Numbered from the stretch's first letter, positions 19,367 through 49,620 are shown. The stretch is 64,000 bases of DNA from Escherichia coli (GCF_003991155.1 NZ_CP031295.1), one strand, 5' to 3'. A program made the numbers and translations. The notes: generated by a model from the letters alone, not told the origin.

Positions 19367-21507
19367 ATGAGTTTTAACGCAAAGGATATGACCCAGGGCG
19401 GTCAGATTGCGTCCATGCGTATCCGCATGTTCAGTCAGATCGCCAATATCATACTTTACTGCCTGTTTATTTTTTTCTGGATCCTAGTTGGTCTGGTTTT
19501 ATGGGTAAAAATAAGCTGGCAGACGTTTGTGAATGGCTGCATTTACTGGTGGTGCACCACGCTGGAAGGCATGCGGGATTTAATCAGGTCCCAGCCGGTC
19601 TATGAGATCCAGTATTACGGCAAAACCTTCCGGATGAACGCGGCTCAGGTACTGCATGATAAATATATGATCTGGTGCGGAGAGCAGCTATGGTCCGCAT
19701 TCGTTCTGGCCACAGTTGTGGCACTGGTTATTGCCTGATTACCTTCTTTGTTGTCTCACGGATTCTGGGGCGTCAGGGTAAACAACAGAGCGAAAATGAA
19801 GTCACAGGTGGTCGTCAGCTGACAGACAATCCGAAAGACGTTGCCCGGATGCTGAAAAAGACGGCAAGGACTCCGATATACGGATTGGCGACCTGCCGAT
19901 TATCCGGGATTCCGAAATCAGAACTTCTGTCTGCACGGCACGGTCGGGGCCGGTAAGTCGGAAGTTATCCGTCGTCTGGCCAACTACGCCCGTCAGCGTG
20001 GAGATATGGTGGTGATTTATGACCGTTCAGGGAATTTGTTAAAAGTTACTATGATCCCTCCATCGATAAAATCCTGAATCCGCTGGATGCCCGCTGTGCC
20101 GCACGGGATTTGTGGAAGAGTGCCTGACACAGCCAGATTTTGATAATACCGCAAATACTCTGATCCCGATGGGGACAAAAGAGGACCCGTTCTGGCAGGG
20201 TTCAGGACGTACCATTTTTGCGGAAGCGGCATACCTGATGCGTAATGACCCCAACCGCAGCTACAGCAAACTGGTGGACACACTGCTTTCCATCAAAATT
20301 GAAAAGCTGCGTACCTTCCTGCGTAATTCACCGGCGGCCAACCTGGTGGAAGAGAAAATCGAGAAAACGGCCATATCCATCCGTGCTGTGCTGACCAACT
20401 ACGTGAAAGCCATCCGTTACCTGCAGGGGATTGAGCATAACGGTGAGTCTTTACCATCCGTGACTGGATGCGTGGTGTCCGGAAGATCAGAAAAACGGCT
20501 GGCTGTTTATCTCGTCGAATGCCGACACCCATGCCTCCCTGAAGCCGGTGATCTCCATGTGGCTGTCCATTGCCATTCGTGGTCTGCTGGCAATGGGAGA
20601 AAACCGTAACCGTCGTGTGTGGTTTTCTGTGATGAGCTACCCACGTTACACAAACTGCCGGACTGGTGGAGATCCTGCCGGAAGCCCGTAAGTTCGGTGG
20701 CTGTTATGTGTTTGGTATCCAGTCTATGCCCAGCTGGAAGATATCTACGGTGAAAGCGGCTGCCACGCTGTTTGACGTCATGAACACCCGTGCCTTTTTC
20801 GTTCTCCCAGCCATAAGATTGCAGAGTTCGCTGCCGGTGAGATTGGTGAGAAAGAGCACCTGAAAGCCAGCGAGCAGTATTCCTACGGTGCTGATCCGGT
20901 ACGTGACGGGGTATCGACCGGTAAGGATATGGAGCGTCAGACGCTGGTCAGTTATTCCGACATTCAGTCTCTGCCGGATCTGACCTGTTATGTCACCCTG
21001 CCCGGACCGTATCCGGCAGTAAAACTCTCCCTGAAATATCAGACACGACCGAAGGTCGCTCCGGAGTTTATTCCGCGTGACATCAACCCGGAAATGGAGA
21101 ACCGTCTGAGTGCCGTACTTGCCGCAAGGGAAGCAGAAGGTCGTCAGATGGCCAGCCTCTTCGAACCGGATGTCCCGGAGGTTGTTTCCGGAGAAGACGT
21201 GACTCAGGCTGAACAGCCGCAACAGCCGGTGTCTCCTGCCATCAACGATAAGAAGTCAGATGCAGGTGTGAATGTTCCGGCAGGGGGGATCGAGCAGGAG
21301 CTGAAAATGAAACCGGAAGAAGAGATGGAACAGCAACTGCCACCCGGGATCAGTGAATCCGGTGAAGTGGTGGATATGGCCGTTTATGAGGCATGGCAAC
21401 GGGAGCAGAATCCGGATATCCAGCAGAAGATGCAGCGTCGTGAAGAGGTGAACATCAATGTGCACCGGGAGCGCGGGGAGGATGTTGAGCCGGGAGATGA
21501 TTTCTGA
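19367..21507 (+). pseudogene. traD: traD coupling protein, fragmented into at least 5 frames by small indels
   Basis: TraD N-terminus ([12 protein letters not shown]...), middle and QQP-rich C-terminus (...EPGDDF) are all present but in different frames (ORFs 19367-19738, 19675-19956, 20112-20609, 20666-20863, 20929-21507). Confidence 0.7.
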
Positions 21508-34129: not shown

Positions 34130-34780
34130 ATGATTCAAACACGTAATCAATATCTGCAGTTTATGCTGGTTATGCTGGCTGCATGGGGCATTAGTTGGGG
34201 AGCCAGATTTGTCATGGAGCAGGCCGTTCTGCTTTATGGATCAGGAAAAAACTATTTGTTCTTCAGTCATGGTACTGTTCTGATGTACCTGCTGTGTGTT
34301 TTCCTGGTATACCGCCGTTGGATAGCTCCGCTACCGGTCGTTGGTCAGCTGCGCAACGTTGGCGTACCGTGGCTGGTCGGTGCGATGGCCGTGGTGTATG
34401 TCGGTGTATTTCTGCTCGGTAAGGCGCTGGCTCTGCCTGCTGAGCCATTTATGACGAAACTTTTTGCCGATAAGTCCATACCTGACGTGATCCTGACGTT
34501 GCTGACCATCTTTATCCTTGCCCCGTTGAATGAGGAAACGCTGTTCCGGGGGATTATGCTGAACGTCTTCCGTTCACGGTACTGCTGGACGATGTGGCTG
34601 GGGGCGCTGATAACGTCGTTGTTGTTCGTCGCCGCGCACAGCCAGTATCAGAACCTGCTGACACTGGCAGAACTGTTCGGTGGGTTGATTACATCAGTGG
34701 CCAGGATCAGAAGTGGTGGCCTGCTGCTGCCGGTATTGCTGCATATGGAAGCAACCACGCTGGGTTTACTGTTTGGTTGA
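34130..34780 (+). CDS. CPBP-family intramembrane protease (tir-like)
   Basis: 216-aa polytopic protein with EExxxR-like (NEETLFRG) and HxxxH-like motifs. Confidence 0.65.
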   Translation: MIQTRNQYLQFMLVMLAAWGISWGARFVMEQAVLLYGSGKNYLFFSHGTVLMYLLCVFLVYRRWIAPLPVVGQLRNVGVPWLVGAMAVVYVGVFLLGKALALPAEPFMTKLFADKSIPDVILTLLTIFILAPLNEETLFRGIMLNVFRSRYCWTMWLGALITSLLFVAAHSQYQNLLTLAELFGGLITSVARIRSGGLLLPVLLHMEATTLGLLFG

Positions 34781-34872
34781 AAGTTATATTTTTATTAAAC
34801 ATTGTGCGTTAAAGCCTGGTGTGTTTTTTTAGTGGATGTTATATTTAAATATAACTTTTATGGAGGTGAAGA

Positions 34873-35130
34873 ATGCATACCACCCGACTGAAGAGGGTTG
34901 GCGGCTCAGTTATGCTGACCGTCCCACCGGCACTGCTGAATGCGCTGTCTCTGGGCACAGATAATGAAGTTGGCATGGTCATTGATAATGGCCGGCTGAT
35001 TGTTGAGCCGTACAGACGCCCGCAATATTCACTGGCTGAGCTACTGGCACAGTGTGATCCGAATGCTGAAATATCAGCTGAAGAACGAGAATGGCTGGAT
35101 GCACCGGCGACTGGTCAGGAGGAAATCTGA
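34873..35130 (+). CDS. pemI: PemI antitoxin (MazE-like)
   Basis: 85-aa ORF directly upstream of pemK. Confidence 0.8.
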   Translation: MHTTRLKRVGGSVMLTVPPALLNALSLGTDNEVGMVIDNGRLIVEPYRRPQYSLAELLAQCDPNAEISAEEREWLDAPATGQEEI

Positions 35131-35131
35131 C

Positions 35132-35464
35132 ATGGAAAGAGGGGAAATCTGGCTTGTCTCGCTTGATCCTACCGCAGGTCATGAGCAGCAGGGAACGCGG
35201 CCGGTGCTGATTGTCACACCGGCGGCCTTTAATCGCGTGACCCGCCTGCCTGTTGTTGTGCCCGTAACCAGCGGAGGCAATTTTGCCCGCACTGCCGGCT
35301 TTGCGGTGTCGTTGGATGGTGTTGGCATACGTACCACAGGTGTTGTACGTTGCGATCAACCCCGGACAATTGATATGAAAGCACGGGGCGGAAAACGACT
35401 CGAACGGGTTCCGGAGACTATCATGAACGAAGTTCTTGGCCGCCTGTCCACTATTCTGACTTGA
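35132..35464 (+). CDS. pemK: PemK toxin (MazF/Kid endoribonuclease)
   Basis: 110 aa from MERGEIWLVSLDPTAGHEQQGTRPVLIV. Confidence 0.85.
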   Translation: MERGEIWLVSLDPTAGHEQQGTRPVLIVTPAAFNRVTRLPVVVPVTSGGNFARTAGFAVSLDGVGIRTTGVVRCDQPRTIDMKARGGKRLERVPETIMNEVLGRLSTILT

Positions 35465-35657
35465 ACATGGGGTTTGAGGGGCAACTGGATGAAAACGTAC
35501 GATTTAGGGCACTAAAACCGCTGTTGTCCCACCATTCTGGTGATTCCCAAACGTTATTTGGCTAAAAAGTAGTTTTGATGTGGTTTATTTTCCGAATTCC
35601 AAGCGCAGCCCTACTTTCTTGTGCGTATTTGCGTGTTTTGCGCAGTTTTGAAGTTCC

Positions 35658-36127
35658 GGTGATGCTGCCAACTTACTGATTTAGTGTATGATGGTGTTTT
35701 TGAGGTGCTCCAGTGGCTTCTGTTTCTATCAGCTGTCCCTCCTGTTCAGCTACTGACGGGGTGGTGCGTAACGGCAAAAGCACCGCCGGACATCAGCGCT
35801 ATCTCTGCTCTCACTGCCGTAAAACATGGCAACTGCAGTTCACTTACACCGCTTCTCAACCCGGTACGCACCAGAAAATCATTGATATGGCCATGAATGG
35901 CGTTGGATGCCGGGCAACCGCCCGCATTATGGGCGTTGGCCTCAACACGATTTTCCGCCATTTAAAAAACTCAGGCCGCAGTCGGTAACCTCGCGCATAC
36001 AGCCGGGCAGTGACGTCATCGTCTGCGCGGAAATGGACGAACAGTGGGGATACGTCGGGGCTAAATCGCGCCAGCGCTGGCTGTTTTACGCGTATGACAG
36101 GCTCCGGAAGACGGTTGTTGCGCACGT
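35658..36127 (+). mobile_element. insA: Truncated IS1 (left IR, insA intact at 35713-35988, insB truncated)
   Basis: IS1 terminal sequence GGTGATGCTGCCAACTTACTGAT; InsA zinc-finger protein; insB breaks off at ~36127. Confidence 0.8.
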
Positions 36128-36722
36128 ATTGGGGTCTGACGCTCAGTGGAACGAAAACTCACGTTAAGCAACGTTTTCTGCCTCTGACGCCTCTTTTAAT
36201 GGTCTCAGATGTCCTTTGGTCACCAGTTCTGCCAGCGTGAAGGAATAATGGCCGAGCATATTGATATGTCCGTGGCAAAGCGGGGAGAGGCGTGCGATAT
36301 CTTCATCATTCAGTGTTTCACCCTGCGCCCGGAGATGATCCAGGGCTGCCTGCATATAAATAGTGTTCCATAACACGACGGCGTTAGTGACCAGCCCCAG
36401 TGCGCCCAGTTGATCTTCCTGACCGTCGGTATATCGTTTTCTTATCTCACCTTTTTGACCGTGACAGATGGCTCTGGCAACGGCATGGCGACTTTCTCCC
36501 CGATTAAGCTGGGTCAGAATGCGCCGGCGGTAATCTTCATCATCAATATAATTAAGCAGATACAGCGTTTTGTTGATGCGCCCCACTTCAATGATTGCCT
36601 GAGTCAGTCCGGAAGGACGTTCACTTTTCAGCAATGAACGGACCAGCACTGAAGCCTGTACTTTGCCCAGCTTCAGGGAGCCAGCGGTCCGGATCATTTC
36701 GTCCCACTGAAGGACTATTTTT
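36128..36722 (-). mobile_element. Tn3-family (Tn3/Tn2-like) 38-bp IR plus tnpA 3' fragment, truncated by IS26
   Basis: GGGGTCTGACGCTCAGTGGAACGAAAACTCACGTTAAG at 36128-36165; minus-strand ORF encodes a Tn3-type transposase C-terminus. Confidence 0.7.
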
Positions 36723-37542
36723 GGCACTGTTGCAAAGTTAGCGATGAGGCAGCCTTTTGTCTTATTCAAAGGCCTTACATTTCAAAAACTCTGCTTACCA
36801 GGCGCATTTCGCCCAGGGGATCACCATAATAAAATGCTGAGGCCTGGCCTTTGCGTAGTGCACGCATCACCTCAATACCTTTGATGGTGGCGTAAGCCGT
36901 CTTCATGGATTTAAATCCCAGCGTGGCGCCGATTATCCGTTTCAGTTTGCCATGATCGCATTCAATCACGTTGTTCCGGTACTTAATCTGTCGGTGTTCA
37001 ACGTCAGACGGGCACCGGCCTTCGCGTTTGAGCAGAGCAAGCGCGCGACCATAGGCGGGCGCTTTATCCGTGTTGATGAATCGCGGGATCTGCCACTTCT
37101 TCACGTTGTTGAGGATTTTACCCAGAAACCGGTATGCAGCTTTGCTGTTACGACGGGAGGAGAGATAAAAATCGACAGTGCGGCCCCGGCTGTCGACGGC
37201 CCGGTACAGATACGCCCAGCGGCCATTGACCTTCACGTAGGTTTCATCCATGTGCCACGGGCAAAGATCGGAAGGGTTACGCCAGTACCAGCGCAGCCGT
37301 TTTTCCATTTCAGGCGCATAACGCTGAACCCAGCGGTAAATCGTGGAGTGATCGACATTCACTCCGCGTTCAGCCAGCATCTCCTGCAGCTCACGGTAAC
37401 TGATGCCGTATTTGCAGTACCAGCGTACGGCCCACAGAATGATGTCACGCTGAAAATGCCGGCCTTTGAATGGGTTCATGTGCAGCTCCATCAGCAAAAG
37501 GGGATGATAAGTTTATCACCACCGACTATTTGCAACAGTGCC
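36723..37542 (-). mobile_element. tnp26: IS26 copy 1 (820 bp; tnp26 36775-37479, minus strand)
   Basis: 14-bp terminal inverted repeats GGCACTGTTGCAAA at both ends; intact 234-aa transposase from MNPFKGRHF. Confidence 0.9.
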
Positions 37543-39043
37543 ACTTCGACGACTACCTGCTGCCGGCCGAGAAGTTCGCCGCACTCAAGCGCGAGCAGGC
37601 CCTGCCCCTGGCGATCAACCCGAACAGCGACCAGTACCTGGAAGAGCGTTTGCAGCTGCTGGACGAGCAGTTGGCCACCGTCACCCGCCTGGCCAAGGAC
37701 AACGAGCTGCCCGATGCCATCCTCACCGAGTCAGGGCTGAAAATCACCCCGCTGGATGCGGCGGTGCCGGATCGGGCGCAGGCGCTGATCGACCAAACCA
37801 GCCAGTTACTGCCGCGCATCAAGATCACCGAACTGCTGATGGACGTGGACGACTGGACGGGCTTCAGCCGCCACTTCACCCACTTGAAGGACGGGGCCGA
37901 GGCCAAAGACAGGACGTTGCTGCTGTCCGCAATCCTCGGTGATGCGATCAACCTCGGGCTGACCAAGATGGCCGAGTCGAGCCCCGGCCTGACCTACGCC
38001 AAGCTGTCCTGGCTGCAAGCCTGGCACATCCGCGACGAAACCTATTCGGCGGCCTTGGCCGAGCTGGTCAACCACCAGTATCGCCACGCCTTTGCCGCCC
38101 ACTGGGGCGACGGCACGACCTCATCCTCCGATGGCCAGCGCTTCCGCGCGGGTGGCCGGGGCGAGAGCACCGGGCACGTCAACCAAGTACGGTAGCGAGC
38201 GGGACGGCTGTTCTATACCCATATCTCCGACCAGTACGCGCCGTTCAGCACCCGCGTGGTGAATGTCGGCGTCCGCGATTCCACCTATGTGCTCGACGGC
38301 CTGCTGTACCACGAGTCCGACCTGCGGATCGAGGCACTACACCGACACGGCCGGCTTCACCGATCACGTCTTTGCCCTGATGCACCTGCTAGGCTTCCGC
38401 TTCGCGCCGCGCATCCGCGACCTCGGCGAAACCAAGCTGTACGTGCCGCAGGGCGTGCAAGCTACCCGACGTTGCGCCCGCTGATCGGCGGCACCCTGAA
38501 CATCAAGCACGTGCGTGCCCACTGGGACGACATCCTGCGCGGCCAGCTCGATCAAGCAGGGCACCGTCACCGCCTCGCTGATGCTGCGCAAGCTCGGCAG
38601 CTACCCGCGCCAGAACGGACTGGCCGTGGCCCTGCGCGAGCTGGGCCGGATCGAGCGCACGCTGTTCATCCTGGACTGGCTGCAAAGTGTTGAACTGCGC
38701 CGCCGCGTGCATGCCGGCCTGAACAAAGGTGAGGCGCGCAACTCGCTGGCGAGGCGGTGTTCTTCAACCGCCTTGGGGAAATCAGGATCGGAGCTTCGAG
38801 CAGCAGCGCTACGGCCAGCGGCCTCAACACGGTGACGGCGGCTATCGTGCTGTGGAACACGGGTACACGGAACGCCACCCGGGGTTGGTCGAGGCCGGCA
38901 AGCCGGTGGACGGCGAGCTGCTGCAATTCCTGTCGCCGCTGGGCTGGGAGCACATCAACCTAACCGGCGATTACGTCTGGCGGCAGAGCCGCAGACTGGA
39001 AGACGGGAAGTTTCGGCCCTTACGGATGCCCGGAAAACCTTAG
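37543..39043 (+). pseudogene. tnpA: Tn1721/Tn21-subgroup tnpA 3' fragment (copy A), 5'-truncated by IS26, with several frameshifts
   Basis: Tn3-family transposase sequence spread over at least 4 frames; ends at the Tn1721 IR. Confidence 0.75.
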
Positions 39044-39076
39044 CGTACGATTTTTTCCGAATTCTGCGGGCTCCCC
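39039..39076 (+). repeat. Tn1721 38-bp terminal inverted repeat
   Basis: Reverse complement of GGGGAGCCCGCAGAATTCGGAAAAAATCGTACGCTAAG. Confidence 0.7.
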
Positions 39077-39374
39077 TATCTCATCTGCGCAAGGCAGAAC
39101 GTGAAGACGGCCGCCCTGGACCTCGCCCGCGAGCGCCAGGCGCACGAGGCCGGCGCGCGGACCCGCGCCACGGCCCACGAGCGGACGCCGCAGCAGGAGC
39201 GCCAGAAGGCCGCCAGAGAGGCCGAGCGCGGCCGTGAGGCTTGGACGCTAGGGCAGGGCATGAAAAAGCCCGTAGCGGGCTGCTACGGGCGTCTGACGCG
39301 GTGGAAAGGGGGAGGGGATGTTGTCTACATGGCTCTGCTGTAGTGAGTGGGTTGCGCTCCGGCAGCGGTCCTGA

Positions 39375-40025
39375 TCAATCGTCACCCTTTCTCGGTCCTT
39401 CAACGTTCCTGACAACGAGCCTCCTTTTCGCCAATCCATCGACAATCACCGCGAGTCCCTGCTCGAACGCTGCGTCCGGATCGGCTTCGTCGAAGGCGTC
39501 TATCGCGGCCCGCAACAGCGGCGAGAGCGGAGCCTGTTCAACGGTGCCGCCGCGCTCGCCGGCATCGCTGTCGCCGGCCTGCTCCTCAAGCACGGCCCCA
39601 ACAGTGAAGTAGCTGATTGTCATCAGCGCATTGACGGCGTCCCCGGCCGAAAAACCCGCCTCGCAGAGGAAGCGAAGCTGCGCGTCGGCCGTTTCCATCT
39701 GCGGTGCGCCCGGTCGCGTGCCGGCATGGATGCGCGCGCCATCGCGGTAGGCGAGCAGCGCCTGCCTGAAGCTGCGGGCATTCCCGATCAGAAATGAGCG
39801 CCAGTCGTCGTCGGCTCTCGGCACCGAATGCGTATGATTCTCCGCCAGCATGGCTTCGGCCAGTGCGTCGAGCAGCGCCCGCTTGTTCCTGAAGTGCCAG
39901 TAAAGCGCCGGCTGCTGAACCCCCAACCGTTCCGCCAGTTTGCGTGTCGTCAGACCGTCTACGCCGACCTCGTTCAACAGGTCCAGGGCGGCACGGATCA
40001 CTGTATTCGGCTGCAACTTTGTCAT
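39375..40025 (-). CDS. tetR: TetR(A) tetracycline repressor
   Basis: 216 aa from MTKLQPNTVIRAALDLLNEVG; divergent from tetA. Confidence 0.9.
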   Translation of the reverse strand: MTKLQPNTVIRAALDLLNEVGVDGLTTRKLAERLGVQQPALYWHFRNKRALLDALAEAMLAENHTHSVPRADDDWRSFLIGNARSFRQALLAYRDGARIHAGTRPGAPQMETADAQLRFLCEAGFSAGDAVNALMTISYFTVGAVLEEQAGDSDAGERGGTVEQAPLSPLLRAAIDAFDEADPDAAFEQGLAVIVDGLAKRRLVVRNVEGPRKGDD

Positions 40026-40029
40026 GCTT

Positions 40030-40085
40030 GACACTTTATCACTGATAAACATAATATGTCCACCAACTTATCAGTGATAAAGAAT
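40030..40085 (+). promoter_or_regulatory. tet operator palindromes in tetR-tetA intergenic region
   Basis: ttatcactgataa and cttatcagtgataaaga palindromic half-sites between divergent tetR and tetA. Confidence 0.55.
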
Positions 40086-40130
40086 CCGCGCGTTCAATCG
40101 GACCAGCGGAGGCTGGTCCGGAGGCCAGAC

Positions 40131-41330
40131 GTGAAACCCAACAGACCCCTGATCGTAATTCTGAGCACTGTCGCGCTCGACGCTGTCGGCATCGGCCTGA
40201 TTATGCCGGTGCTGCCGGGCCTCCTGCGCGATCTGGTTCACTCGAACGACGTCACCGCCCACTATGGCATTCTGCTGGCGCTGTATGCGTTGATGCAATT
40301 TGCCTGCGCACCTGTGCTGGGCGCGCTGTCGGATCGTTTCGGGCGGCGGCCGGTCTTGCTCGTCTCGCTGGCCGGCGCTGCTGTCGACTACGCCATCATG
40401 GCGACGACGCCTTTCCTTTGGGTTCTCTATATCGGGCGGATCGTGGCCGGCATCACCGGGGCGACTGGGGCGGTAGCCGGCGCTTATATTGCCGATATCA
40501 CTGATGGCGATGAGCGCGCGCGGCACTTCGGCTTCATGAGCGCCTGTTTCGGGTTCGGGATGGTCGCGGGACCTGTGCTCGGTGGGCTGATGGGCGGTTT
40601 CTCCCCCCACGCTCCGTTCTTCGCCGCGGCAGCCTTGAACGGCCTCAATTTCCTGACGGGCTGTTTCCTTTTGCCGGAGTCGCACAAAGGCGAACGCCGG
40701 CCGTTACGCCGGGAGGCTCTCAACCCGCTCGCTTCGTTCCGGTGGGCCCGGGGCATGACCGTCGTCGCCGCCCTGATGGCGGTCTTCTTCATCATGCAAC
40801 TTGTCGGACAGGTGCCGGCCGCGCTTTGGGTCATTTTCGGCGAGGATCGCTTTCACTGGGACGCGACCACGATCGGCATTTCGCTTGCCGCATTTGGCAT
40901 TCTGCATTCACTCGCCCAGGCAATGATCACCGGCCCTGTAGCCGCCCGGCTCGGCGAAAGGCGGGCACTCATGCTCGGAATGATTGCCGACGGCACAGGC
41001 TACATCCTGCTTGCCTTCGCGACACGGGGATGGATGGCGTTCCCGATCATGGTCCTGCTTGCTTCGGGTGGCATCGGAATGCCGGCGCTGCAAGCAATGT
41101 TGTCCAGGCAGGTGGATGAGGAACGTCAGGGGCAGCTGCAAGGCTCACTGGCGGCGCTCACCAGCCTGACCTCGATCGTCGGACCCCTCCTCTTCACGGC
41201 GATCTATGCGGCTTCTATAACAACGTGGAACGGGTGGGCATGGATTGCAGGCGCTGCCCTCTACTTGCTCTGCCTGCCGGCGCTGCGTCGCGGGCTTTGG
41301 AGCGGCGCAGGGCAACGAGCCGATCGCTGA
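40131..41330 (+). CDS. tetA: TetA(A) tetracycline efflux MFS transporter (GTG start)
   Basis: 399 aa from (M)KPNRPLIVILSTVALDAVGIG; 12-TM MFS. Confidence 0.9.
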   Translation: MKPNRPLIVILSTVALDAVGIGLIMPVLPGLLRDLVHSNDVTAHYGILLALYALMQFACAPVLGALSDRFGRRPVLLVSLAGAAVDYAIMATTPFLWVLYIGRIVAGITGATGAVAGAYIADITDGDERARHFGFMSACFGFGMVAGPVLGGLMGGFSPHAPFFAAAALNGLNFLTGCFLLPESHKGERRPLRREALNPLASFRWARGMTVVAALMAVFFIMQLVGQVPAALWVIFGEDRFHWDATTIGISLAAFGILHSLAQAMITGPVAARLGERRALMLGMIADGTGYILLAFATRGWMAFPIMVLLASGGIGMPALQAMLSRQVDEERQGQLQGSLAALTSLTSIVGPLLFTAIYAASITTWNGWAWIAGAALYLLCLPALRRGLWSGAGQRADR

Positions 41331-41468
41331 TCGTGGAAACGATAGGCCTATGCCATGCGGGTCAAGGCGACTTCCGGCAAGCTATACGCGCCCTAGGAGT
41401 GCGGTTGGAACGTTGGCCCAGCCAGATACTCCCGATCACGAGCAGGACGCCGATGATTTGAAGCGCAC

Positions 41469-42245
41469 TCAGCGTCTGATCAAGAACAACCATCCTAGCA
41501 ACACGGCGGTCCCCGGGCTGAGAAAGCCCAGTAAGGAAACAACTGTAGGTTCGAGTCGCGAGATCCCCCGGAACCAAAGGAAGTAGGTTAAACCCGCTCC
41601 GATCAGGCCGAGCCACGCCAGGCCGAGAACATTGGTTCCTGTAGGCATCGGGATTGGCGGATCAAACACTAAAGCTACTGGAACGAGCAGAAGTCCTCCG
41701 GCCGCCAGTTGCCAGGCGGTAAAGGTGAGCAGAGGCACGGGAGGTTGCCACTTGCGGGTCAGCACGGTTCCGAACGCCATGGAAACCGCCCCCGCCAGGC
41801 CCGCTGCGACGCCGACAGGATCTAGCGCTGCGTTTGGTGTCAACACCAACAGCGCCACGCCCGCAGTTCCGCAAATAGCCCCCAGGACCGCCATCAATCG
41901 TATCGGGCTACCTAGCAGAGCGGCAGAGATGAACACGACCATCAGCGGCTGCACAGCGCCTACCGTCGCCGCGACCCCGCCCGGCAGGCGGTAGACCGAA
42001 ATAAACAACAAGCTCCAGAATAGCGAAATATTAAGTGCGCCGAGGATGAAGATGCGCATCCACCAGATTCCCGTTGGAATCTGTCGGACGATCATCACGA
42101 GCAATAAACCCGCCGGCAACGCCCGCAGCATCGCGACCGTCATCGGTGAGAAGTTCGGCAGGTATTGGGTGGTGACAATGTAGGTGCTGCCCCAAATGGC
42201 AGGTGCTATCGCTGTGAACAATAAATCGGGCGTGCGTAATGACAT
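41469..42245 (-). CDS. pecM: PecM-like EamA/DMT-family transporter
   Basis: 258-aa polytopic protein convergent with tetA, as in Tn1721. Confidence 0.7.
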   Translation of the reverse strand: MSLRTPDLLFTAIAPAIWGSTYIVTTQYLPNFSPMTVAMLRALPAGLLLVMIVRQIPTGIWWMRIFILGALNISLFWSLLFISVYRLPGGVAATVGAVQPLMVVFISAALLGSPIRLMAVLGAICGTAGVALLVLTPNAALDPVGVAAGLAGAVSMAFGTVLTRKWQPPVPLLTFTAWQLAAGGLLLVPVALVFDPPIPMPTGTNVLGLAWLGLIGAGLTYFLWFRGISRLEPTVVSLLGFLSPGTAVLLGWLFLIRR

Positions 42246-42382
42246 GCGATTACAAGACCTCCGCTACGGCGATGGGTTTTTGAGAGTTGCAGGCGCCGCG
42301 ATGACCGCACCCTGACTTGGACTGGCCCTGCCTCGCACCAATCCACCTGCGGCTATGGCCGCGATCATGCGAGGCCCGAAAA

Positions 42383-42720
42383 TTACACGACCTGTACACG
42401 TCCGCCGAACCCGGAACGCAACAGAGCTTCGTGGGCATCCCGATCCGGGTCGTAGCAGCAGTCCTGGACCAAACGCACGTCGTAGTCCGCATCACTAGCC
42501 CAGGCGACGCTTGAAAGAACAACGCCGGTGGTGCTTATCCCGGCCATGACAAGCGTGCTTACGCCGCGCGTCCGAAGGTCGGCGTCGAGCGCCGTGCCAT
42601 AAAAGACGCTGGCTCGCGGACATGCATAGAAAAGGTCGCCCCGTTCGATCGCAAGCCCTTCGACGGGCAGACCGGTGCGAAATCGTCCGCTCGGGAGATA
42701 CGGTGAGATTTGGCGATTCG
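42383..42720 (-). pseudogene. Isochorismatase-family (cysteine hydrolase) C-terminal fragment
   Basis: C-terminus ...STLVMAGISTTGVVLSSVAWASDADYDV... resembles isochorismatase family; no N-terminus; upper boundary approximate. Confidence 0.35.
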
Positions 42721-42739
42721 TCGCCGGCGGCGCATGTTC

Positions 42740-44320
42740 ATACTCTTCGCCGAGCGAAAAGTTGGGGAACAGCACGGGCCGGCCGCGCAAGGCGTGCTGG
42801 CAGCCGTGCAGACCCTGCGTGAGATGAACGCCGACAACCTGCGCAAGGTGCCGGCCGATGCACCCACGGCCTTCATCAAGCCGCGCTGGAAGCCGCTGGT
42901 GATCACCCCGGAAGGCCTCGACCGGAAATTCTACGAAATCTGCGCCCTGTCCGAGCTGAAGAACGCCCTGCGCTCCGGCGACATCTGGGTCAAGGCTCGC
43001 GGCAGTTCCGCGACTTCGACGACTACCTGCTGCCGGCCGAGAAGTTCGCCGCACTCAAGCGCGAGCAGGCCTGCGGCGATCAACCCGAACAGCGACCAGT
43101 ACACGGAAGAGCGTTTGCAGCTGCTGGACGAGCAGTTGGCCACCGTCACCCGCGGCCAGGACGGCAAGCTGCCCGATGCCATCCTCACCGAGTCAGGGCT
43201 GAAAATCACCCCGCTGGATGCGTGCCGGATCGGCGCAGGCGCTGATCGACCAAACCAGCCAGGTTACTGCCGCGCATCAAGATCACCGAACTGCTGATGG
43301 ACGTGGACGACTGGACGGGCTTCAGCCGCCACTTCACCCACTTGAAGGACGGGCCGAGGCCAAAGACAGGACGTTGCTGCTGTCCGCAATCCTCGGTGAT
43401 GCGATCAGCCCGGGCTGACCAAGATGGCCGAGCCGAGCCCGGCCTGACTGCCAAGCTGTCGTCGCGGCAAGCACGGCACATCCGCGACGAAACCTATTCG
43501 GCGGCCTTGGCCGAGCTGGTCAACCACCAGTATCGCCACGCCTTTGCCGCCCACTGGGGCGACGGCGACCTCATCCTCCGATGGCCAGCGCTTCCGCGCG
43601 GGTGGCCGGGCGAGAGCACCGGCACGTCAACCCGAATACGGTAGCGAGCCGGGACGGCTGTTCTACCCATATCTCCGACCAGTACGCGCCGTTCAGCACC
43701 CGCGTGGTGAATGTCGGCGTCCGCGATTCCACCTATGTGCTCGACGGCCTGCTGTACCACGGTCCGACCTGCGGATCGAGGAGCACTACACCGACACGGC
43801 CGGCCCGCGATCACGTCTTTTGCCCTGATGCACCTGCTGGGCTTCCGCTTCGCGCCGCGCATCCGCGACCTCGGCGAAACCAAGCTGTACGTGCCGCAGG
43901 GCGTGCAAGCCTACCCGACGTTGCGCCCGCTGATCGGCGGCACCCTGAACATCAAGCACGTGCGTGCCCACTGGGACGACATCCTGCGCCTGGCCAGCTC
44001 GATCAAGCAGGGCACCGTCACCGCCTCGCTGATGCTGCGCAAGCTCGGCAGCTACCCGCCAGAACGGACTGGCCGTGGCCCTGCGCGAGCTGGGCGGATC
44101 GAGCACGCTGTTCATCTGGACTGGCTGCAAAGTGTTGAACTGCGCCGCCGCGTGCATGCCGGCCTGAACAAAGGTGAGGCGCGCAACTCGCTGGCGGGGG
44201 TGTTCTTCAACCGCCTTGGGGAAATCAGGGATCGGAGCTTCGAGCAGCAGCGCTACCGGGCCAGCGGCCTCAACCTGGTGACGGCGGCTATCGTGCTGTG
44301 GAACACGGTGTACCTGGAAC
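42740..44320 (+). pseudogene. tnpA: Second copy (copy B) of Tn1721-type tnpA 3' segment, heavily affected by indels/substitutions, 3'-truncated by IS26
   Basis: Same transposase sequence as 37543-39043 but extends further 5' and is broken into many frames; 5' boundary approximate. Confidence 0.65.
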
Positions 44321-45140
44321 GGCACTGTTGCAAAGTTAGCGATGAGGCAGCCTTTTGTCTTATTCAAAGGCCTTACATTTCAAAAACTCTGCTTACCAGG
44401 CGCATTTCGCCCAGGGGATCACCATAATAAAATGCTGAGGCCTGGCCTTTTGCGTAGTGCACGCATCACCTCAATACCTTTGATGGTGGCGTAAGCCGTC
44501 TTCATGGATTTAAATCCCAGCGTGGCGCCGATTATCCGTTTCAGTTTGCCATGATCGCATTCAATCACGTTGTTCCGGTACTTAATCTGTCGGTGTTCAA
44601 CGTCAGACGGCACACGGCCTTCGCGTTTGAGCAGAGCAAGCGCGCGACCATAGGCGGGCGCTTTATCCGTGTTGATGAATCGCGGGATCTGCCACTTCTT
44701 CACGTTGTTGAGGATTTTACCCAGAAACCGGTATGCAGCTTTGCTGTTACGACGGGAGGAGAGATAAAATCGACAGTGCGGCCCCGGCTGTCGACGGCCC
44801 GGTACAGATACGCCCAGCGGCCATTGACCTTCACGTAGGTTTCATCCATGTGCCACGGGCAAAGATCGGAAGGGTTACGCCAGTACCAGCGCAGCCGTTT
44901 TTCCATTTCAGGCGCATAACGCTGAACCCAGCGGTAAATCGTGGAGTGATCGACATTCACTCCGCGTTCAGCCAGCATCTCCTGCAGCTCACGGTAACTG
45001 ATGCCGTATTTGCAGTACCAGCGTACGGCCCACAGAATGATGTCACGCTGAAAATGCCGGCCTTTGAATGGGTTCATGTGCAGCTCCATCAGCAAAAGGG
45101 GATGATAAGTTTATCACCACCGACTATTTGCAACAGTGCC
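44321..45140 (-). mobile_element. tnp26: IS26 copy 2 with frameshifted transposase
   Basis: Terminal IRs present; tnp26 split into ORFs 44419-44703 and 44700-45095 by single-base indels relative to copies 1 and 3. Confidence 0.8.
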
Positions 45141-45479
45141 CGCCCGCCTATGGTCGCGCGCTTGCTCTGCTCAAACGCGAAGGCCGGTGCCCGTCTGACG
45201 TTGAACACCGACAGATTAAGTACCGGAACAACGTGATTGAATGCGATCATGGCAAACTGAAACGGATAATCGGCGCCACGCTGGGATTTAAATCCATGAA
45301 GACGGCTTACGCCACCATCAAAGGTATTGAGGTGATGCGTGCACTACGCAAAGGCCAGGCCTCAGCATTTTATTATGGTGATCCCCTGGGCGAAATGCGC
45401 CTGGTAAGCAGAGTTTTTGAAATGTAAGGCCTTTGAATAAGACAAAAGGCTGCCTCATCGCTAACTTTGCAACAGTGCC
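45141..45479 (+). mobile_element. Partial IS26 (3' 339 bp with IRR), inverted relative to copy 2
   Basis: tnp26 C-terminal coding sequence plus terminal IR TTTGCAACAGTGCC at 45466-45479. Confidence 0.75.
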
Positions 45480-45616
45480 AATTTATGAGTAAAGGATTAT
45501 GTCCACGATAAGCACCTGGGTCGATTCCTGGGAGGCGGCCATGAGGGTAGGGAAGCGCCGTCCCGTCAAGTCAGCGTAATGCTCTGCCAGTGTTACAACC
45601 AATTAACCAATTCTGA

Positions 45617-46432
45617 TTAGAAAAACTCATCGAGCATCAAATGAAACTGCAATTTATTCATATCAGGATTATCAATACCATATTTTTGAAAAAGCCGTTT
45701 CTGTAATGAAGGAGAAAACTCACCGAGGCAGTTCCATAGGATGGCAAGATCCTGGTATCGGTCTGCGATTCCGACTCGTCCAACATCAATACAACCTATT
45801 AATTTCCCCTCGTCAAAAATAAGGTTATCAAGTGAGAAATCACCATGAGTGACGACTGAATCCGGTGAGAATGGCAAAAGCTTATGCATTTCTTTCCAGA
45901 CTTGTTCAACAGGCCAGCCATTACGCTCGTCATCAAAATCACTCGCATCAACCAAACCGTTATTCATTCGTGATTGCGCCTGAGCGAGACGAAATACGCG
46001 ATCGCTGTTAAAAGGACAATTACAAACAGGAATCGAATGCAACCGGCGCAGGAACACTGCCAGCGCATCAACAATATTTTCACCTGAATCAGGATATTCT
46101 TCTAATACCTGGAATGCTGTTTTCCCGGGGATCGCAGTGGTGAGTAACCATGCATCATCAGGAGTACGGATAAAATGCTTGATGGTCGGAAGAGGCATAA
46201 ATTCCGTCAGCCAGTTTAGTCTGACCATCTCATCTGTAACATCATTGGCAACGCTACCTTTGCCATGTTTCAGAAACAACTCTGGCGCATCGGGCTTCCC
46301 ATACAATCGATAGATTGTCGCACCTGATTGCCCGACATTATCGCGAGCCCATTTATACCCATATAAATCAGCATCCATGTTGGAATTTAATCGCGGCCTC
46401 GAGCAAGACGTTTCCCGTTGAATATGGCTCAT
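45617..46432 (-). CDS. aph(3')-Ia: APH(3')-Ia aminoglycoside phosphotransferase (kanamycin/neomycin resistance)
   Basis: 271 aa MSHIQRETSCSRPRLNSNMDADLYGYKWARDNVGQSG...; flanked by IS26 as in Tn4352-like structures. Confidence 0.9.
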   Translation of the reverse strand: MSHIQRETSCSRPRLNSNMDADLYGYKWARDNVGQSGATIYRLYGKPDAPELFLKHGKGSVANDVTDEMVRLNWLTEFMPLPTIKHFIRTPDDAWLLTTAIPGKTAFQVLEEYPDSGENIVDALAVFLRRLHSIPVCNCPFNSDRVFRLAQAQSRMNNGLVDASDFDDERNGWPVEQVWKEMHKLLPFSPDSVVTHGDFSLDNLIFDEGKLIGCIDVGRVGIADRYQDLAILWNCLGEFSPSLQKRLFQKYGIDNPDMNKLQFHLMLDEFF

Positions 46433-46519
46433 AACACCCCTTGTATTACTGTTTATGTAAGCAGACAGTTTTATTGTTCATGATGATATATTTTTATCTT
46501 GTGCAATGTAACATCAGAG

Positions 46520-47339
46520 GGCACTGTTGCAAATAGTCGGTGGTGATAAACTTATCATCCCCTTTTGCTGATGGAGCTGCACATGAACCCATTCAAAGGC
46601 CGGCATTTTCAGCGTGACATCATTCTGTGGGCCGTACGCTGGTACTGCAAATACGGCATCAGTTACCGTGAGCTGCAGGAGATGCTGGCTGAACGCGGAG
46701 TGAATGTCGATCACTCCACGATTTACCGCTGGGTTCAGCGTTATGCGCCTGAAATGGAAAAACGGCTGCGCTGGTACTGGCGTAACCCTTCCGATCTTTG
46801 CCCGTGGCACATGGATGAAACCTACGTGAAGGTCAATGGCCGCTGGGCGTATCTGTACCGGGCCGTCGACAGCCGGGGCCGCACTGTCGATTTTTATATC
46901 TCCTCCCGTCGTAACAGCAAAGCTGCATACCGGTTTCTGGGTAAAATCCTCAACAACGTGAAGAAGTGGCAGATCCCGCGATTCATCAACACGGATAAAG
47001 CGCCCGCCTATGGTCGCGCGCTTGCTCTGCTCAAACGCGAAGGCCGGTGCCCGTCTGACGTTGAACACCGACAGATTAAGTACCGGAACAACGTGATTGA
47101 ATGCGATCATGGCAAACTGAAACGGATAATCGGCGCCACGCTGGGATTTAAATCCATGAAGACGGCTTACGCCACCATCAAAGGTATTGAGGTGATGCGT
47201 GCACTACGCAAAGGCCAGGCCTCAGCATTTTATTATGGTGATCCCCTGGGCGAAATGCGCCTGGTAAGCAGAGTTTTTGAAATGTAAGGCCTTTGAATAA
47301 GACAAAAGGCTGCCTCATCGCTAACTTTGCAACAGTGCC
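46520..47339 (+). mobile_element. tnp26: IS26 copy 3 (tnp26 46583-47287)
   Basis: 14-bp IRs at both ends, intact transposase. Confidence 0.9.
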
Positions 47340-47660
47340 ACGAACAGCACCTTCAGATAATGGTATCCAGTCAATTTGTGCCTTCATAATACCAGTCATC
47401 GCTCCATGTCGTTCCGGAGAGCACCACACCATTCCTTCAGACCAGCGAACCAGTTCACGCAACTCCATAACTTTTGGATGTGATTCCGGTGCATCATCAG
47501 GAAGTGGAAGGCCAGATGGATTAAAAATGCGGACGTCTGCGCCCATTGCAGTTAACAAACGGCCTGCTTCCTCTGTCGCCAGTCGACTGTATGAGCGCTC
47601 ACGAACTGAGCCATAAAGCATTAGAATACGAGGTGGGTGAGATATTGCCGGTATCCCCAT
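47340..47660 (-). pseudogene. arsH: arsH (NADPH-dependent FMN reductase) 5' fragment truncated by IS26
   Basis: N-terminal ~107 codons with ...[13 protein letters not shown]...[24 protein letters not shown] then IS26 boundary. Confidence 0.6.
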
Positions 47661-47820
47661 TTTTTGCTCAGTTATTGCAGTATCAGATAAATCAGGAACT
47701 ATATTATTTAACCTATTAATTTTTATGATTTTCTCTATATATTCTTGGCTTAATTAGGTGTGCTTCGCACGGGTAGATACAGCATTCGTCAATCATGACA
47801 GTTATGAGTTTTCCGGTTAC

Positions 47821-48144
47821 TTACCCATTTTTGCCAGCGGGTTCCGCAACATCTGTTTTACTGTTTACACAGCACTCTTCACGTAAGAATTCGATGATAG
47901 CTTCCAGTATTTCATATTGAGAGACGCACATGAGCGTTCGACTCTCCCGGTTTTGTGTGACGAGTCCTACTGATACCAGGGCTGAAATATGATGACTTAA
48001 CGTTGATGAAGGAATGCCAAGCTGCTTTTGCAATTCACCTACAGGTAAACCTTGTTCTCCAGCTTTTACAAGATGTTTGAATATGAACAAACGGGTCGGG
48101 TGACCCAGTTCTTTTAGAGCTTTAGCTACTTCTTCCAGTTGCAT
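47821..48144 (-). CDS. arsR: ArsR/SmtB-family metalloregulator
   Basis: 107 aa with HTH (PTRLFIFKHL...LPVGELQKQLGIPSSTLSHHISAL) and C-terminal cysteine pair. Confidence 0.65.
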   Translation of the reverse strand: MQLEEVAKALKELGHPTRLFIFKHLVKAGEQGLPVGELQKQLGIPSSTLSHHISALVSVGLVTQNRESRTLMCVSQYEILEAIIEFLREECCVNSKTDVAEPAGKNG

Positions 48145-48248
48145 GTGACAACCCTCTGCCTGATGATATTTCGATAATACCAGAAATATCTTGACTATAA
48201 TTATATTTCGATTATTCTAGAATAATAGATTCTGTCAAGAGGTTTAGT

Positions 48249-49328
48249 ATGAATAGTTGGATTCCTATGTTGCAAGATGCCGCAGAGATGTTTGTTTTTC
48301 TGGCTGTTGAGCTTTCATTGCTGTTTATTGTCATTAGTGCCGGTGTGAGCCTGATAAGGCAAAAAGTCCCGGATCATAAAATTCAGCAGATGATGGGGGC
48401 GAGAAAAGGTAAGGGGTATCTGTTGGCCTCGTTGCTGGGAGCCGTTACCCCTTTCTGTAGTTGCTCAACAATTCCAATGTTGCGAGGATTGTTGTCTGCG
48501 AAAGCGGGGTTTGGTCCGACACTCACTTTTTTGTTTGTTTCACCGTTGCTTAATCCCATTATCGTGGGACTAATGTGGGTTACCTTTGGCTGGAAAGTAA
48601 CTTTGCTGTATGCGATCATCGCTGCCGGTGTTTCAGTTCTTTCCAGTATTATACTGGATTATTTAGGGTTTGAACGTCATATTGTTGAATACAAAAATTC
48701 AGTATCAGGTAGTTGCGCCACCAAGTGCGGTGATTCTGAAGCTTCGGTAAAAACGAATTGCTGTACTTCATCAGCAAAAACCATAATTAACTTAAAGACA
48801 GTAAAGAAAGAGCAAAATATATCGGCGTGTTGTCCCTCAATTCTATCAGAAAAATCTTCTGAAAGTTGTTGCAGCAGCGAGAGTCAGGGCAACAGAAATC
48901 TCACAATGAATGCCACCTCTGGTCTAATAAAATTAGCAATGAAAGATGCCTTACAACAGTTTAAGGATGTTCTGCCTTATCTTTTGTTAGCTATATTAAT
49001 AGGTTCATTTATTTATGGTTTTATCCCTTCAGAGTGGATTGCAGCTCATGCCGGTGCAGATAATCCATTAGCCATACCGCTCAGTGCTGTTGTTGGTATT
49101 CCGCTGTATATTCGTGCTGAGGCCGTAATACCACTTGCATCAGTTCTGATGACTAAAGGTATGGGCCTCGGAGCTTTAATGGCCTTGATAATCGGTAGTG
49201 CTGGAGCGAGTCTGACAGAAGTAATATTGCTTAAATCAATGTTCAGAATGCCCATGATAATCGCATTTCTGACGGTTATCTTAGGTATGGCAATCCTTAT
49301 GGGATATTTAACGCAATTTTTGTTTTAA
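48249..49328 (+). CDS. arsP: ArsP-like permease (putative organoarsenical efflux)
   Basis: 359-aa polytopic protein with TPFCSCS motif; divergent from arsR. Confidence 0.6.
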   Translation: MNSWIPMLQDAAEMFVFLAVELSLLFIVISAGVSLIRQKVPDHKIQQMMGARKGKGYLLASLLGAVTPFCSCSTIPMLRGLLSAKAGFGPTLTFLFVSPLLNPIIVGLMWVTFGWKVTLLYAIIAAGVSVLSSIILDYLGFERHIVEYKNSVSGSCATKCGDSEASVKTNCCTSSAKTIINLKTVKKEQNISACCPSILSEKSSESCCSSESQGNRNLTMNATSGLIKLAMKDALQQFKDVLPYLLLAILIGSFIYGFIPSEWIAAHAGADNPLAIPLSAVVGIPLYIRAEAVIPLASVLMTKGMGLGALMALIIGSAGASLTEVILLKSMFRMPMIIAFLTVILGMAILMGYLTQFLF

Positions 49329-49620
49329 TCCTTATGAGAAGGGATTTTTGCGTCAATATGAAAATCCCTTCAGTCTTACGGCGCGGTTCTAACGGTGTAG
49401 CCCTTTTATTGTTATCCCTAAACCACCTCCTAGGGAGGTGGTGATTGATCCTGTAAGGCTATAGCCTGAAGAATGCCCATGTCGGAATATCTCTGCTTAC
49501 TGACCACAAGTAAAAGCAACTGTTCTACCAGCAGCCTGCAAAAAACATATAAGCTGATCTGAAAGGAATACTTCACAATGAATATTATTGTGTTTGTAAC
49601 CTGCTGTTATCGCGATGAAA

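Follow-up and report, generated by a model that had tools for sequence, protein, structure and literature searches.

IS26-joined remnants of Tn1721 and Tn4352 carrying tet(A) and aph(3')-Ia on an Escherichia coli F-type conjugative plasmid

Introduction

The closest described relatives of the region analysed here are Tn1721 (Allmeier et al. 1992, as cited in PMC3817090) and Tn4352, in which aphA1a is carried between two copies of IS26 (IS26-aphA1a-IS26; PMC4676283). The stability of Tn4352 versus Tn4352B, the movement of translocatable units and the targeted conservative reaction have all been described as mechanisms of IS26 (PMC4196232, PMC4676283, PMC4894685). At the level of whole plasmids, pRHB02-C02_2 (CP058079), pTK3887_2, p10B and backbones of the pMR0516mcr lineage are known carriers or backbones of a block of the structure IS26-ΔTn1721[tet(A)]-IS26-ΔIS26-aph(3')-Ia-IS26, and pMR0516mcr itself has been typed F18:A-:B1 (PMC4914657). 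In the literature we found descriptions of the components and of the lineage only, and no name for the block as a whole.

Here we analyse a patchwork of tet(A) and aph(3')-Ia segments joined by IS26 within a window of 64,000 nucleotides, the whole stretch of DNA studied, from an E. coli F-type conjugative plasmid. The whole is best explained, with high confidence, as a multiresistance region built through the action of IS26 and carried by a conjugative E. coli plasmid of the IncFII/IncFIB type (F18:A-:B1-like).

Results

Gene identities were assigned by profile searches in which the NCBIfam and Pfam curated cut-offs were passed or approached. The region reads, from left to right, ΔIS1, a Tn3-type end, IS26-1, the 3' end of a Tn1721 tnpA, tetR-tet(A)-pecM, a second tnpA fragment, IS26-2, a partial IS26, aph(3')-Ia, IS26-3, ΔarsH, arsR and an ArsP-type permease. 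This gene order, proposed in an earlier note made from the sequence alone, is borne out to the base, each element that it named being found at the position given.

The left flank begins with the left 473 bp of an IS1 (35658-36130, plus strand) that retains an exact left inverted repeat (35658-35680) and an intact insA but a cut insB; the ORFs at 35713-35988 and 35907-36167, corresponding to InsA and partial InsB, match the NCBIfam IS1 transposase profiles. The IS1 stops at 36130, where it abuts the end of a Tn3/Tn2-type transposon (36131-36722, minus strand) consisting of an exact Tn3-type 38-bp inverted repeat (36131-36168) and a tnpA of which IS26-1 has left only the 3' end. The ORF at 36164-36769 represents the C-terminus of the Tn3 transposase (NCBIfam profile positions 791-954 of 954).

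The 14-bp terminal inverted repeat of IS26 occurs seven times, compared to 0.06 occurrences expected by chance, and delimits three copies of 820 bp and a partial copy of 339 bp that has IRR only. IS26-1 (36723-37542, minus strand) has both terminal repeats and an intact IS6-family transposase gene, and is flanked by CTATTTTT and ACTTCGAC. IS26-2 (44321-45140, minus strand) also has its terminal repeats, but its tnp26 is broken by four single-base indels. The partial copy (45141-45479, plus strand) comprises the last 339 bp up to the IRR end and is identical to 47001-47339, within IS26-3 (46520-47339, plus strand), whose tnp26 is intact and which carries one SNP at 46898. The DDE transposase Tnp26 of copies 1 and 3 scores 275 bits against an IS6 transposase cut-off of 125. 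The orientations previously ascribed to IS26-1, IS26-2 and the partial copy are confirmed: IS26-1 and IS26-2 lie in the same orientation, and the partial copy abutting IS26-2 lies in the opposite one. IS26-3 is oriented like the partial copy. IS26-1 and IS26-2 are thus direct repeats, 7,598 bp apart, that flank the tet segment in the manner of a pseudo-compound transposon.

Between these two copies, the 3' part of a Tn1721 tnpA (37543-39076, plus strand), which contains a Tn3 DDE domain (Pfam) and is annotated in relatives as a TnAs1-family transposase fragment, ends in an exact internal 38-bp Tn1721 inverted repeat at 39039-39076, the sole Tn1721 repeat within the window. It is followed by tetR(A) (39375-40052, minus strand; NCBIfam TetR, 304 bits, cut-off 265), whose product differs from that of relatives by one substitution, G182D, and by the efflux pump gene tet(A) (40131-41330, plus strand; 399 codons from the annotated start at 40131; NCBIfam Tet(A), 891 bits, cut-off 840), whose product carries A93T relative to the Tn1721-type protein in L007 and L002. 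Downstream lie pecM (41362-42245, minus strand), which matches EamA/DMT-family transporters and has an apparent frameshift at 41480, and a second tnpA fragment (42740-44320, plus strand; left boundary approximate) that is a direct repeat of the first and likewise contains the Tn3 DDE domain. IS26-2 cuts this second fragment 205 bp short of the outer inverted repeat: in L007, a pO111-CRL115-like plasmid, collinearity with the fragment runs to 21159 and the repeat is found at 21327-21364. Over 39076-44321 the window runs collinear with the truncated Tn1721 carried by L007, and in clean reference copies the two tnpA fragments form direct repeats of 99.93% identity, like those of Tn1721. Both findings uphold the view that the two fragments mirror the Tn1721 structure. 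An origin of the second fragment from a different, related transposon was also considered and was rejected in view of the single mismatch between the repeats in plasmid p1446b and of the error signature described below.

The second resistance module consists of the 1,040-bp central segment of Tn4352 (45480-46519, minus strand), with aph(3')-Ia at 45617-46432 (NCBIfam APH(3')-Ia, 650 bits, cut-off 625). This segment is identical to that of the complete Tn4352 in L007, which substantiates its description as Tn4352-like, and a single G adjoins the IS26 IRL, as in the stable type of Tn4352 (PMC4676283). Two IS26 copies plus the central segment amount here to 2,680 bp, against the published 2,681 bp. 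The partial IS26 at 45141-45479 is what remains of Tn4352's left IS26, so that two complete, directly oriented copies are no longer present. The earlier statement that the neighbour is truncated at every IS26 boundary goes a little too far, since it does not hold for the two junctions flanking the 1,040-bp aphA1 segment, which are those of canonical Tn4352.

On the right, IS26-3 borders a truncated arsH of which only the N-terminal half is left (47340-47660, minus strand; NCBIfam ArsH profile positions 23-124 of 219) and which is annotated in relatives as an incomplete NAD(P)H oxidoreductase. The ars remnant reported earlier is therefore correct as to the truncated arsH, to which an intact ArsR/SmtB-family regulator supported by profile matches (47821-48144, minus strand) and an intact ArsP-type permease of the plasmid backbone (ArsP_1; 48249-49328, plus strand; Pfam PF03773, 181 bits) must be added. 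The arsenic detoxification genes arsB/acr3 and arsC were not found in 47340-49328, so these genes do not make up an ars operon, and in a relative the neighbours of the ars cluster are unrelated backbone genes.

Several of these genes appear damaged. The indels of IS26-2 are located at 44448, 44608-44610, 44614 and 44765, the corresponding copy being intact in relatives; pecM is identical to the reference for 255 aa before a 1-nt deletion; and the two tnpA fragments of the window differ from each other by approximately 4%. Of 86 differences from p1446b, 81 fall within IS26-2 or one of the tnpA repeats; deletions account for 58. The error-like differences are mostly deletions of 1-2 nt of G or C, with a recurrent change of CCTGG to CACGG, and 16 of 53 events are found no more than 3 nt from a CCWGG, compared to 3.8% of bases, which represents an approximately 8-fold enrichment at Dcm sites. 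Similar error-like patches affect traD and a CCTGG at 34678. The earlier note says nothing of such patches in IS26-2, in either tnpA fragment or at the 3' end of pecM. These changes stand in the sequence as given and could be taken at face value, as a broken IS26-2, a truncated pecM and tnpA repeats diverged by real mutational decay. We regard such decay as very improbable: short G/C deletions clustered in repeated DNA and enriched at Dcm sites argue against it, as do the clean copies in dozens of relatives and the occurrence of the same kind of patch outside the resistance region. The frameshifts of IS26-2, the truncation of pecM and the divergence of the tnpA fragments are almost certainly long-read basecalling errors.

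To examine the history of the IS26 insertions, the six 8-bp IS26 flanks (CTATTTTT, ACTTCGAC, CCTGGAAC, AATTTATG, CATCAGAG and ACGAACAG) were compared in all pairs. The check for 8-bp target-site duplications that had been suggested gave a negative result, with none, direct or inverted, among the six flanks in the 64-kb window; matching sequences could sit at IS26 copies elsewhere on the plasmid. No duplication is to be expected where IS26 has acted conservatively, where homologous recombination has taken place or where adjacent DNA was deleted, and the absence hence is no argument against the identity of the IS26 copies; it fits conservative or homologous IS26 events accompanied by adjacent deletions and does not by itself fix the order of events. 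A perfect inverted repeat of 828 nt, extending 8 bp past IS26-1 and IS26-3 and resembling an inverted flank signature, proved to be an extension artefact and was rejected because only 5 of the 8 flank bases match and one SNP separates the two copies.

The signature junction (tnpA fragment-IS26-partial IS26-aph) is present in at least 86 PLSDB plasmids, and the whole 10.6-kb IS26-bounded block (window 36707-47340) is found unbroken in dozens of E. coli IncFII/IncFIB plasmids. Its occurrence as a single piece in many plasmids, with IS26 at both sides, would be compatible with arrival as one compound transposon by copy-in into the site. However, the outer IS26 copies are inverted, whereas a pseudo-compound transposon requires directly oriented copies (PMC4196232, PMC4894685); CTATTTTT and ACGAACAG, which flank the block on the outside, show no duplication; and Tn3 tnpA and arsH, both truncated, are unrelated genes and not two halves of one target. 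Arrival in this form is effectively refuted.

The relatives differ from the window in IS26-bounded segments that were lost or gained and in inversions between copies of IS26, which supports the history of successive IS26 events proposed earlier. Exactly the tet unit is absent from pDETEC88, which reads ΔarsH-IS26-ΔIS26-aph; pRHB02-C02_2 and pTK3887_2 carry the block in the other orientation and, in addition, an aac(3)-IIe unit bordered by IS26 copies in direct orientation; and pMB6980_1 shares with the window the order aph-IS26-ΔarsH. The orientation of the block in the window could in principle have been created during assembly across the IS26 repeats, given that short reads cannot span 820-bp inverted repeats and that most relatives have the other orientation. 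This is very unlikely, as the error profile indicates long reads, which span IS26, the independent assembly of p1446b is arranged identically over the two junctions, and each junction is found in other records. Very unlikely, too, is an inversion by intramolecular replicative (copy-in) transposition of IS26 instead of recombination between existing copies. Inversions of this kind are known for IS26, and one of the outer copies could be the product of the event, but it predicts an inverted 8-bp duplication, one inside and one outside the segment, and no pair of inner and outer flanks is reverse-complementary. Furthermore, all four IS-end junctions are the same as in non-inverted relatives, as for an exchange between pre-existing copies. 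We infer homologous or Tnp26-conservative events rather than copy-in, and the direction and order of these events are likewise a matter of inference.

Discussion

Taken together, these results describe a mosaic that is already known and widespread, with nothing new hidden in its structure. The resistance region lies between the pemIK/IS1 region, downstream of repA, and the backbone arsH-arsR-arsP cluster, and comprises two modules: a Tn1721 remnant predicted to provide TetR-regulated tetracycline efflux by Tet(A), and a Tn4352 remnant predicted to provide phosphorylation of kanamycin and neomycin by APH(3')-Ia. Judged from gene content, neither parent transposon should be self-mobile, Tn1721 being without the tnpR-res-IRL side and the outer inverted repeat and Tn4352 without most of one IS26, and mobility and rearrangement would now rest on IS26. 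IS26-1 and IS26-2 may act as a pseudo-compound transposon or translocatable unit, of which one IS26 and 6.8 kb would be lost or gained together, and recombination between the outer, inverted IS26-1 and IS26-3 would flip the whole block. If its indels were real, IS26-2 would be transposase-defective, yet could still be acted upon in trans or by RecA.

The value of the region is epidemiological only: it marks the plasmid as belonging to a globally spread E. coli IncF lineage with tet(A) and aph(3')-Ia and reveals the IS26-bounded units that this lineage gains, loses and flips, and it opens no new biological question. Its apparent pseudogenes (tnp26 of IS26-2 and pecM) and the seemingly diverged tnpA repeats call for a recheck of sequence quality before any interpretation.

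Compared to Tn1721, the region shares the exact 38-bp inverted repeat and the order tnpA 3' end-IR-tetR-tetA-pecM-partial tnpA repeat. It lacks the Tn1722 left part (IRL, the mcp-like orf, res, tnpR and the 5' half of tnpA) and the last 205 bp including the outer repeat, both of which IS26 has removed. With tnpA cut at 37543 and the outer repeat deleted, it does not have the two outer repeats, tnpR, res and full tnpA of a complete element, and on its sequence Tn1721 here is a remnant and not a functional member. The likeness to Tn4352 extends to the identical central 1,040 bp, the complete right IS26 and the single-G stable form, whereas of the left IS26 only the last 339 bp remain, cut by the oppositely oriented IS26-2. 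Because this copy is so reduced, Tnp26 cannot excise the aphA1 unit from a complete left copy.

Comparison with known IS26-flanked tet(A)/aphA1 configurations, which had been recommended, recovered the same block across relatives. The closest match in arrangement is p1446b (E. coli GPEC1446, chicken, USA), collinear with window 34299-49414 (15.1 kb) in a single alignment and sharing both outer junctions and the block orientation. It differs in its IncI1-type backbone (IncI1 tra/pil genes), in blaTEM-1 upstream and in ISEcp1-blaCTX-M-55 after the permease. Relative to the common relatives, the block of the window is inverted with respect to arsH and pemIK, between outer, inversely oriented IS26 copies, and has neither the aac(3)-IIe segment with its flanking IS26 nor an insertion of ISEcp1-blaCTX-M-55. 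On a reading that we consider improbable, the window shows a rare state of the F18:A-:B1-type region, both flipped and minimal, in which the aac(3)-IIe unit is missing and the ISEcp1-blaCTX-M-55 site is empty, and which could be ancestral to the widespread CTX-M-55 plasmids; IS26-2 might then also be truly inactivated, an inactivation that would stabilise the tet module. As a multiresistance region of the IncF lineage, the locus finds its counterpart in the block of the IncFII/IncFIB plasmids, which aligns with the window in a single alignment at 99.1-99.2%, the differences being the error-like indels of the window, and has the same ΔarsH and ΔTn3 tnpA boundaries and the same backbone on both sides.

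Structure of the IS26 mosaic

The 14-bp terminal repeat of IS26 was found seven times in the window (0.06 expected by chance), each time within the region 35658-49328. These repeats define three complete 820-bp copies, called here IS26-1 (36723-37542), IS26-2 (44321-45140) and IS26-3 (46520-47339), and a partial copy (45141-45479) corresponding to the last 339 bp of IS26. IS26-1 and IS26-2 share the same orientation, opposite to that of IS26-3 and the partial copy. A SNP at 46898 in IS26-3, changing FYLSS to FYISS in Tnp26, is absent from IS26-1 and from p1446b (NZ_JBUBJM010000003.1), a plasmid of the chicken E. coli GPEC1446 used as a clean reference, and is either a private variant or an error.

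At the left edge, a truncated IS1 with an exact left end at 35658 retains 473 bp. It stops at 36130, where it is cut by a Tn3-type inverted repeat of 38 bp (36131-36168, an exact match). This repeat is followed by 554 bp of minus-strand sequence from the 3' end of a Tn3-family tnpA, which covers positions 791-954 of a 954-position profile. The interval from IS26-1 to IS26-2 is occupied by a Tn1721 remnant, which opens with the 3' part of tnpA, closing in the exact 38-bp Tn1721 inverted repeat at 39039-39076, and continues with tetR(A), tet(A) and pecM, identified by NCBIfam scores, and a second tnpA fragment. The substitutions A93T in Tet(A) and G182D in TetR may be real variants or errors. 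Positions 39076-44321 are collinear with a truncated Tn1721 carried by a pO111-CRL115-like plasmid (published relative, PMC3817090), the final 205 bp of Tn1721, including its outer inverted repeat, having been deleted in the window by IS26-2. In p1446b, the corresponding pair of tnpA fragments aligns without gaps over 1,348 bp at 99.93% identity. The pair is the Tn1721-type partial duplication, in line with the earlier note's proposal that the fragments flanking the tet module mirror Tn1721.

The partial copy and IS26-3 enclose a 1,040-bp segment with aph(3')-Ia (45480-46519). This segment is identical to the central segment of the complete Tn4352 found on the same pO111-CRL115-like plasmid. 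A single G adjoins the left end of IS26 in this segment, a type described as stable Tn4352 as opposed to the unstable Tn4352B (PMC4676283), and the window's Tn4352 is assigned to the stable form. It should be noted that two IS26 copies and this segment amount to 2,680 bp whereas Tn4352 is given as 2,681 bp (PMC4676283); the segment is identical across the relatives examined. To the right of IS26-3 are the N-terminal half of arsH (profile positions 23-124 of 219), an ArsR-family regulator and an ArsP_1-type permease. Every element previously listed was recovered in the same order through terminal repeats, inverted-repeat matches and profile matches. The reading as an IS26-mediated mosaic with a Tn1721 tet(A) module and a Tn4352-like aph is supported, the two modules by collinearity and identity with the pO111-CRL115-like plasmid.

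Target-site duplications

The earlier note had also proposed a search for 8-bp duplications at the IS26 ends. The flanks are CTATTTTT (left) and ACTTCGAC (right) for IS26-1, CCTGGAAC (left) for IS26-2, AATTTATG (right) for the partial copy, and CATCAGAG (left) and ACGAACAG (right) for IS26-3; IS26-2 and the partial copy adjoin each other. Pairwise comparison of these six flanks, direct and reverse-complemented, yielded no matching pair, a result that rules out arrival of the whole 10.6-kb block (IS26-1 to IS26-3) as a single unit. According to the IS26 literature, duplication-free junctions would be left by homologous exchange of one copy with another, by adjacent deletions or by targeted conservative reactions (PMC4196232, PMC4894685).

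An 828-nt inverted repeat running 8 bp into the outer flanks was rejected as an extension artefact, the flank bases being alike at only 5 of 8 positions. The sequences outside IS26-1 (36707-36722, Tn3 tnpA side) and IS26-3 (47340-47356, arsH side) have CTGAAGG and several more bases in common, one side being reverse-complemented. This likeness over 16-17 bp, probably due to chance, is enough for BLAST and repeat search to extend alignments beyond the IS ends.

Sequence quality

A comparison with p1446b over 14.5 kb gave 86 differing positions, 81 of them in IS26-2 or one of the two tnpA repeats. Of the 86, 58 are bases deleted from the window, chiefly C or G. Counted as events, the differences number 53, and 16 of these are no more than 3 nt from a Dcm CCWGG site, an approximately 8-fold enrichment given that 3.8% of bases are that near; the change from CCTGG to CACGG is recurrent. 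Compared with clean relatives, dense 1-2 nt deletions and such changes occur at 38184-38880, 41480, 42993-44198 and 44448-44765, confined to repeated DNA. We attribute this pattern to basecalling errors left over from long-read sequencing, both in repeats and at methylated sites; the window probably derives from a long-read assembly whose repeats were not polished. The frameshifts in pecM and in tnp26 of IS26-2 would then be false; the broken tnp26, the truncated pecM and the ~96% identity between the tnpA fragments are therefore best read as artefacts.

Elsewhere, a similar patch, 1.2 kb of traD (19681-20841), shows about 50 substitutions and single-base deletions relative to plasmid pDETEC88, including two CCTGG-to-CACGG changes, whereas the backbone outside this patch is nearly identical; a CPBP-family gene has lost 3 nt at a CCTGG (34678-34681). 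These differences may mix a real traD allele difference with basecalling or polishing errors.

Proposed mechanism

From curated family models and established knowledge of both genes, tetracycline resistance would result from Tet(A) efflux under TetR control and a second resistance from APH(3')-Ia. Since both parent transposons are crippled, movement would rely on IS26. The tet segment with one IS26, lying between direct repeats, could form a translocatable unit; the aphA1 segment, with one complete IS26 only, could be lost solely through the 339-bp repeat; and the inverted outer copies would permit flipping of the block. We infer these IS26-driven steps from the anatomy and from relatives differing by exactly those units.

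Comparison with related plasmids

The window belongs to a conjugative IncFII/IncFIB plasmid, with tra genes, finO, repA and pemIK to the left of the region and backbone genes as far as pifC and a colicin M immunity gene to the right. The right flank matches, among other plasmids, pMR0516mcr, whose type is F18:A-:B1 (PMC4914657). Many relatives carry ISEcp1-blaCTX-M-55-ΔwbuC just past the permease, where the 5 bp 49410-49414 are duplicated; in the window this site is empty and the ESBL unit ISEcp1-blaCTX-M-55 is absent there. On the chromosome of the pig E. coli PEC403 (NZ_CM168009.1), 91% of an IS26-tet-aph-IS26-ΔarsH-arsR-permease query is covered in three pieces, which suggests integration of the block with part of a plasmid backbone.

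One record, p1446b, has a single collinear alignment spanning window 34299-49414. Its backbone is IncI1-like (traE-J, pil, shufflon), unlike the IncF backbone of the window, and its 15-kb F-plasmid piece comprises part of the CPBP gene, pemIK, ΔIS1 and the whole mosaic up to arsP; this likeness indicates that the resistance region moved along with F backbone between plasmid types.

In dozens of E. coli plasmids the 10.6-kb block is recovered as a single alignment. Its signature junction, tnpA fragment-IS26-partial IS26-aph, is present in at least 86 PLSDB records (2-kb probe across the junction, coverage of at least 80%), and the ΔTn3-IS26-ΔTn1721 junction in about a dozen PLSDB plasmids. The tet unit bounded by IS26-1 and IS26-2 is exactly what plasmid pDETEC88 lacks, and pMB6980_1 has the same aph-IS26-ΔarsH junction as the window. 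The common arrangement, as in pRHB02-C02_2 and pTK3887_2, reads arsP-arsR-ΔarsH-IS26-Tn1721 part-IS26-ΔIS26-aph-IS26-aac(3)-IIe segment-IS26-ΔTn3-ΔIS1-pemK. By contrast, the window has no aac(3)-IIe segment, which in the common arrangement lies between IS26 copies in direct orientation, and its block is flipped between the two outer copies, which are inversely oriented. Both forms share all four IS-end junctions, the outcome expected from exchange between pre-existing IS26 copies. This is a known and common structure, of which the block orientation seen in the window is a minor variant.
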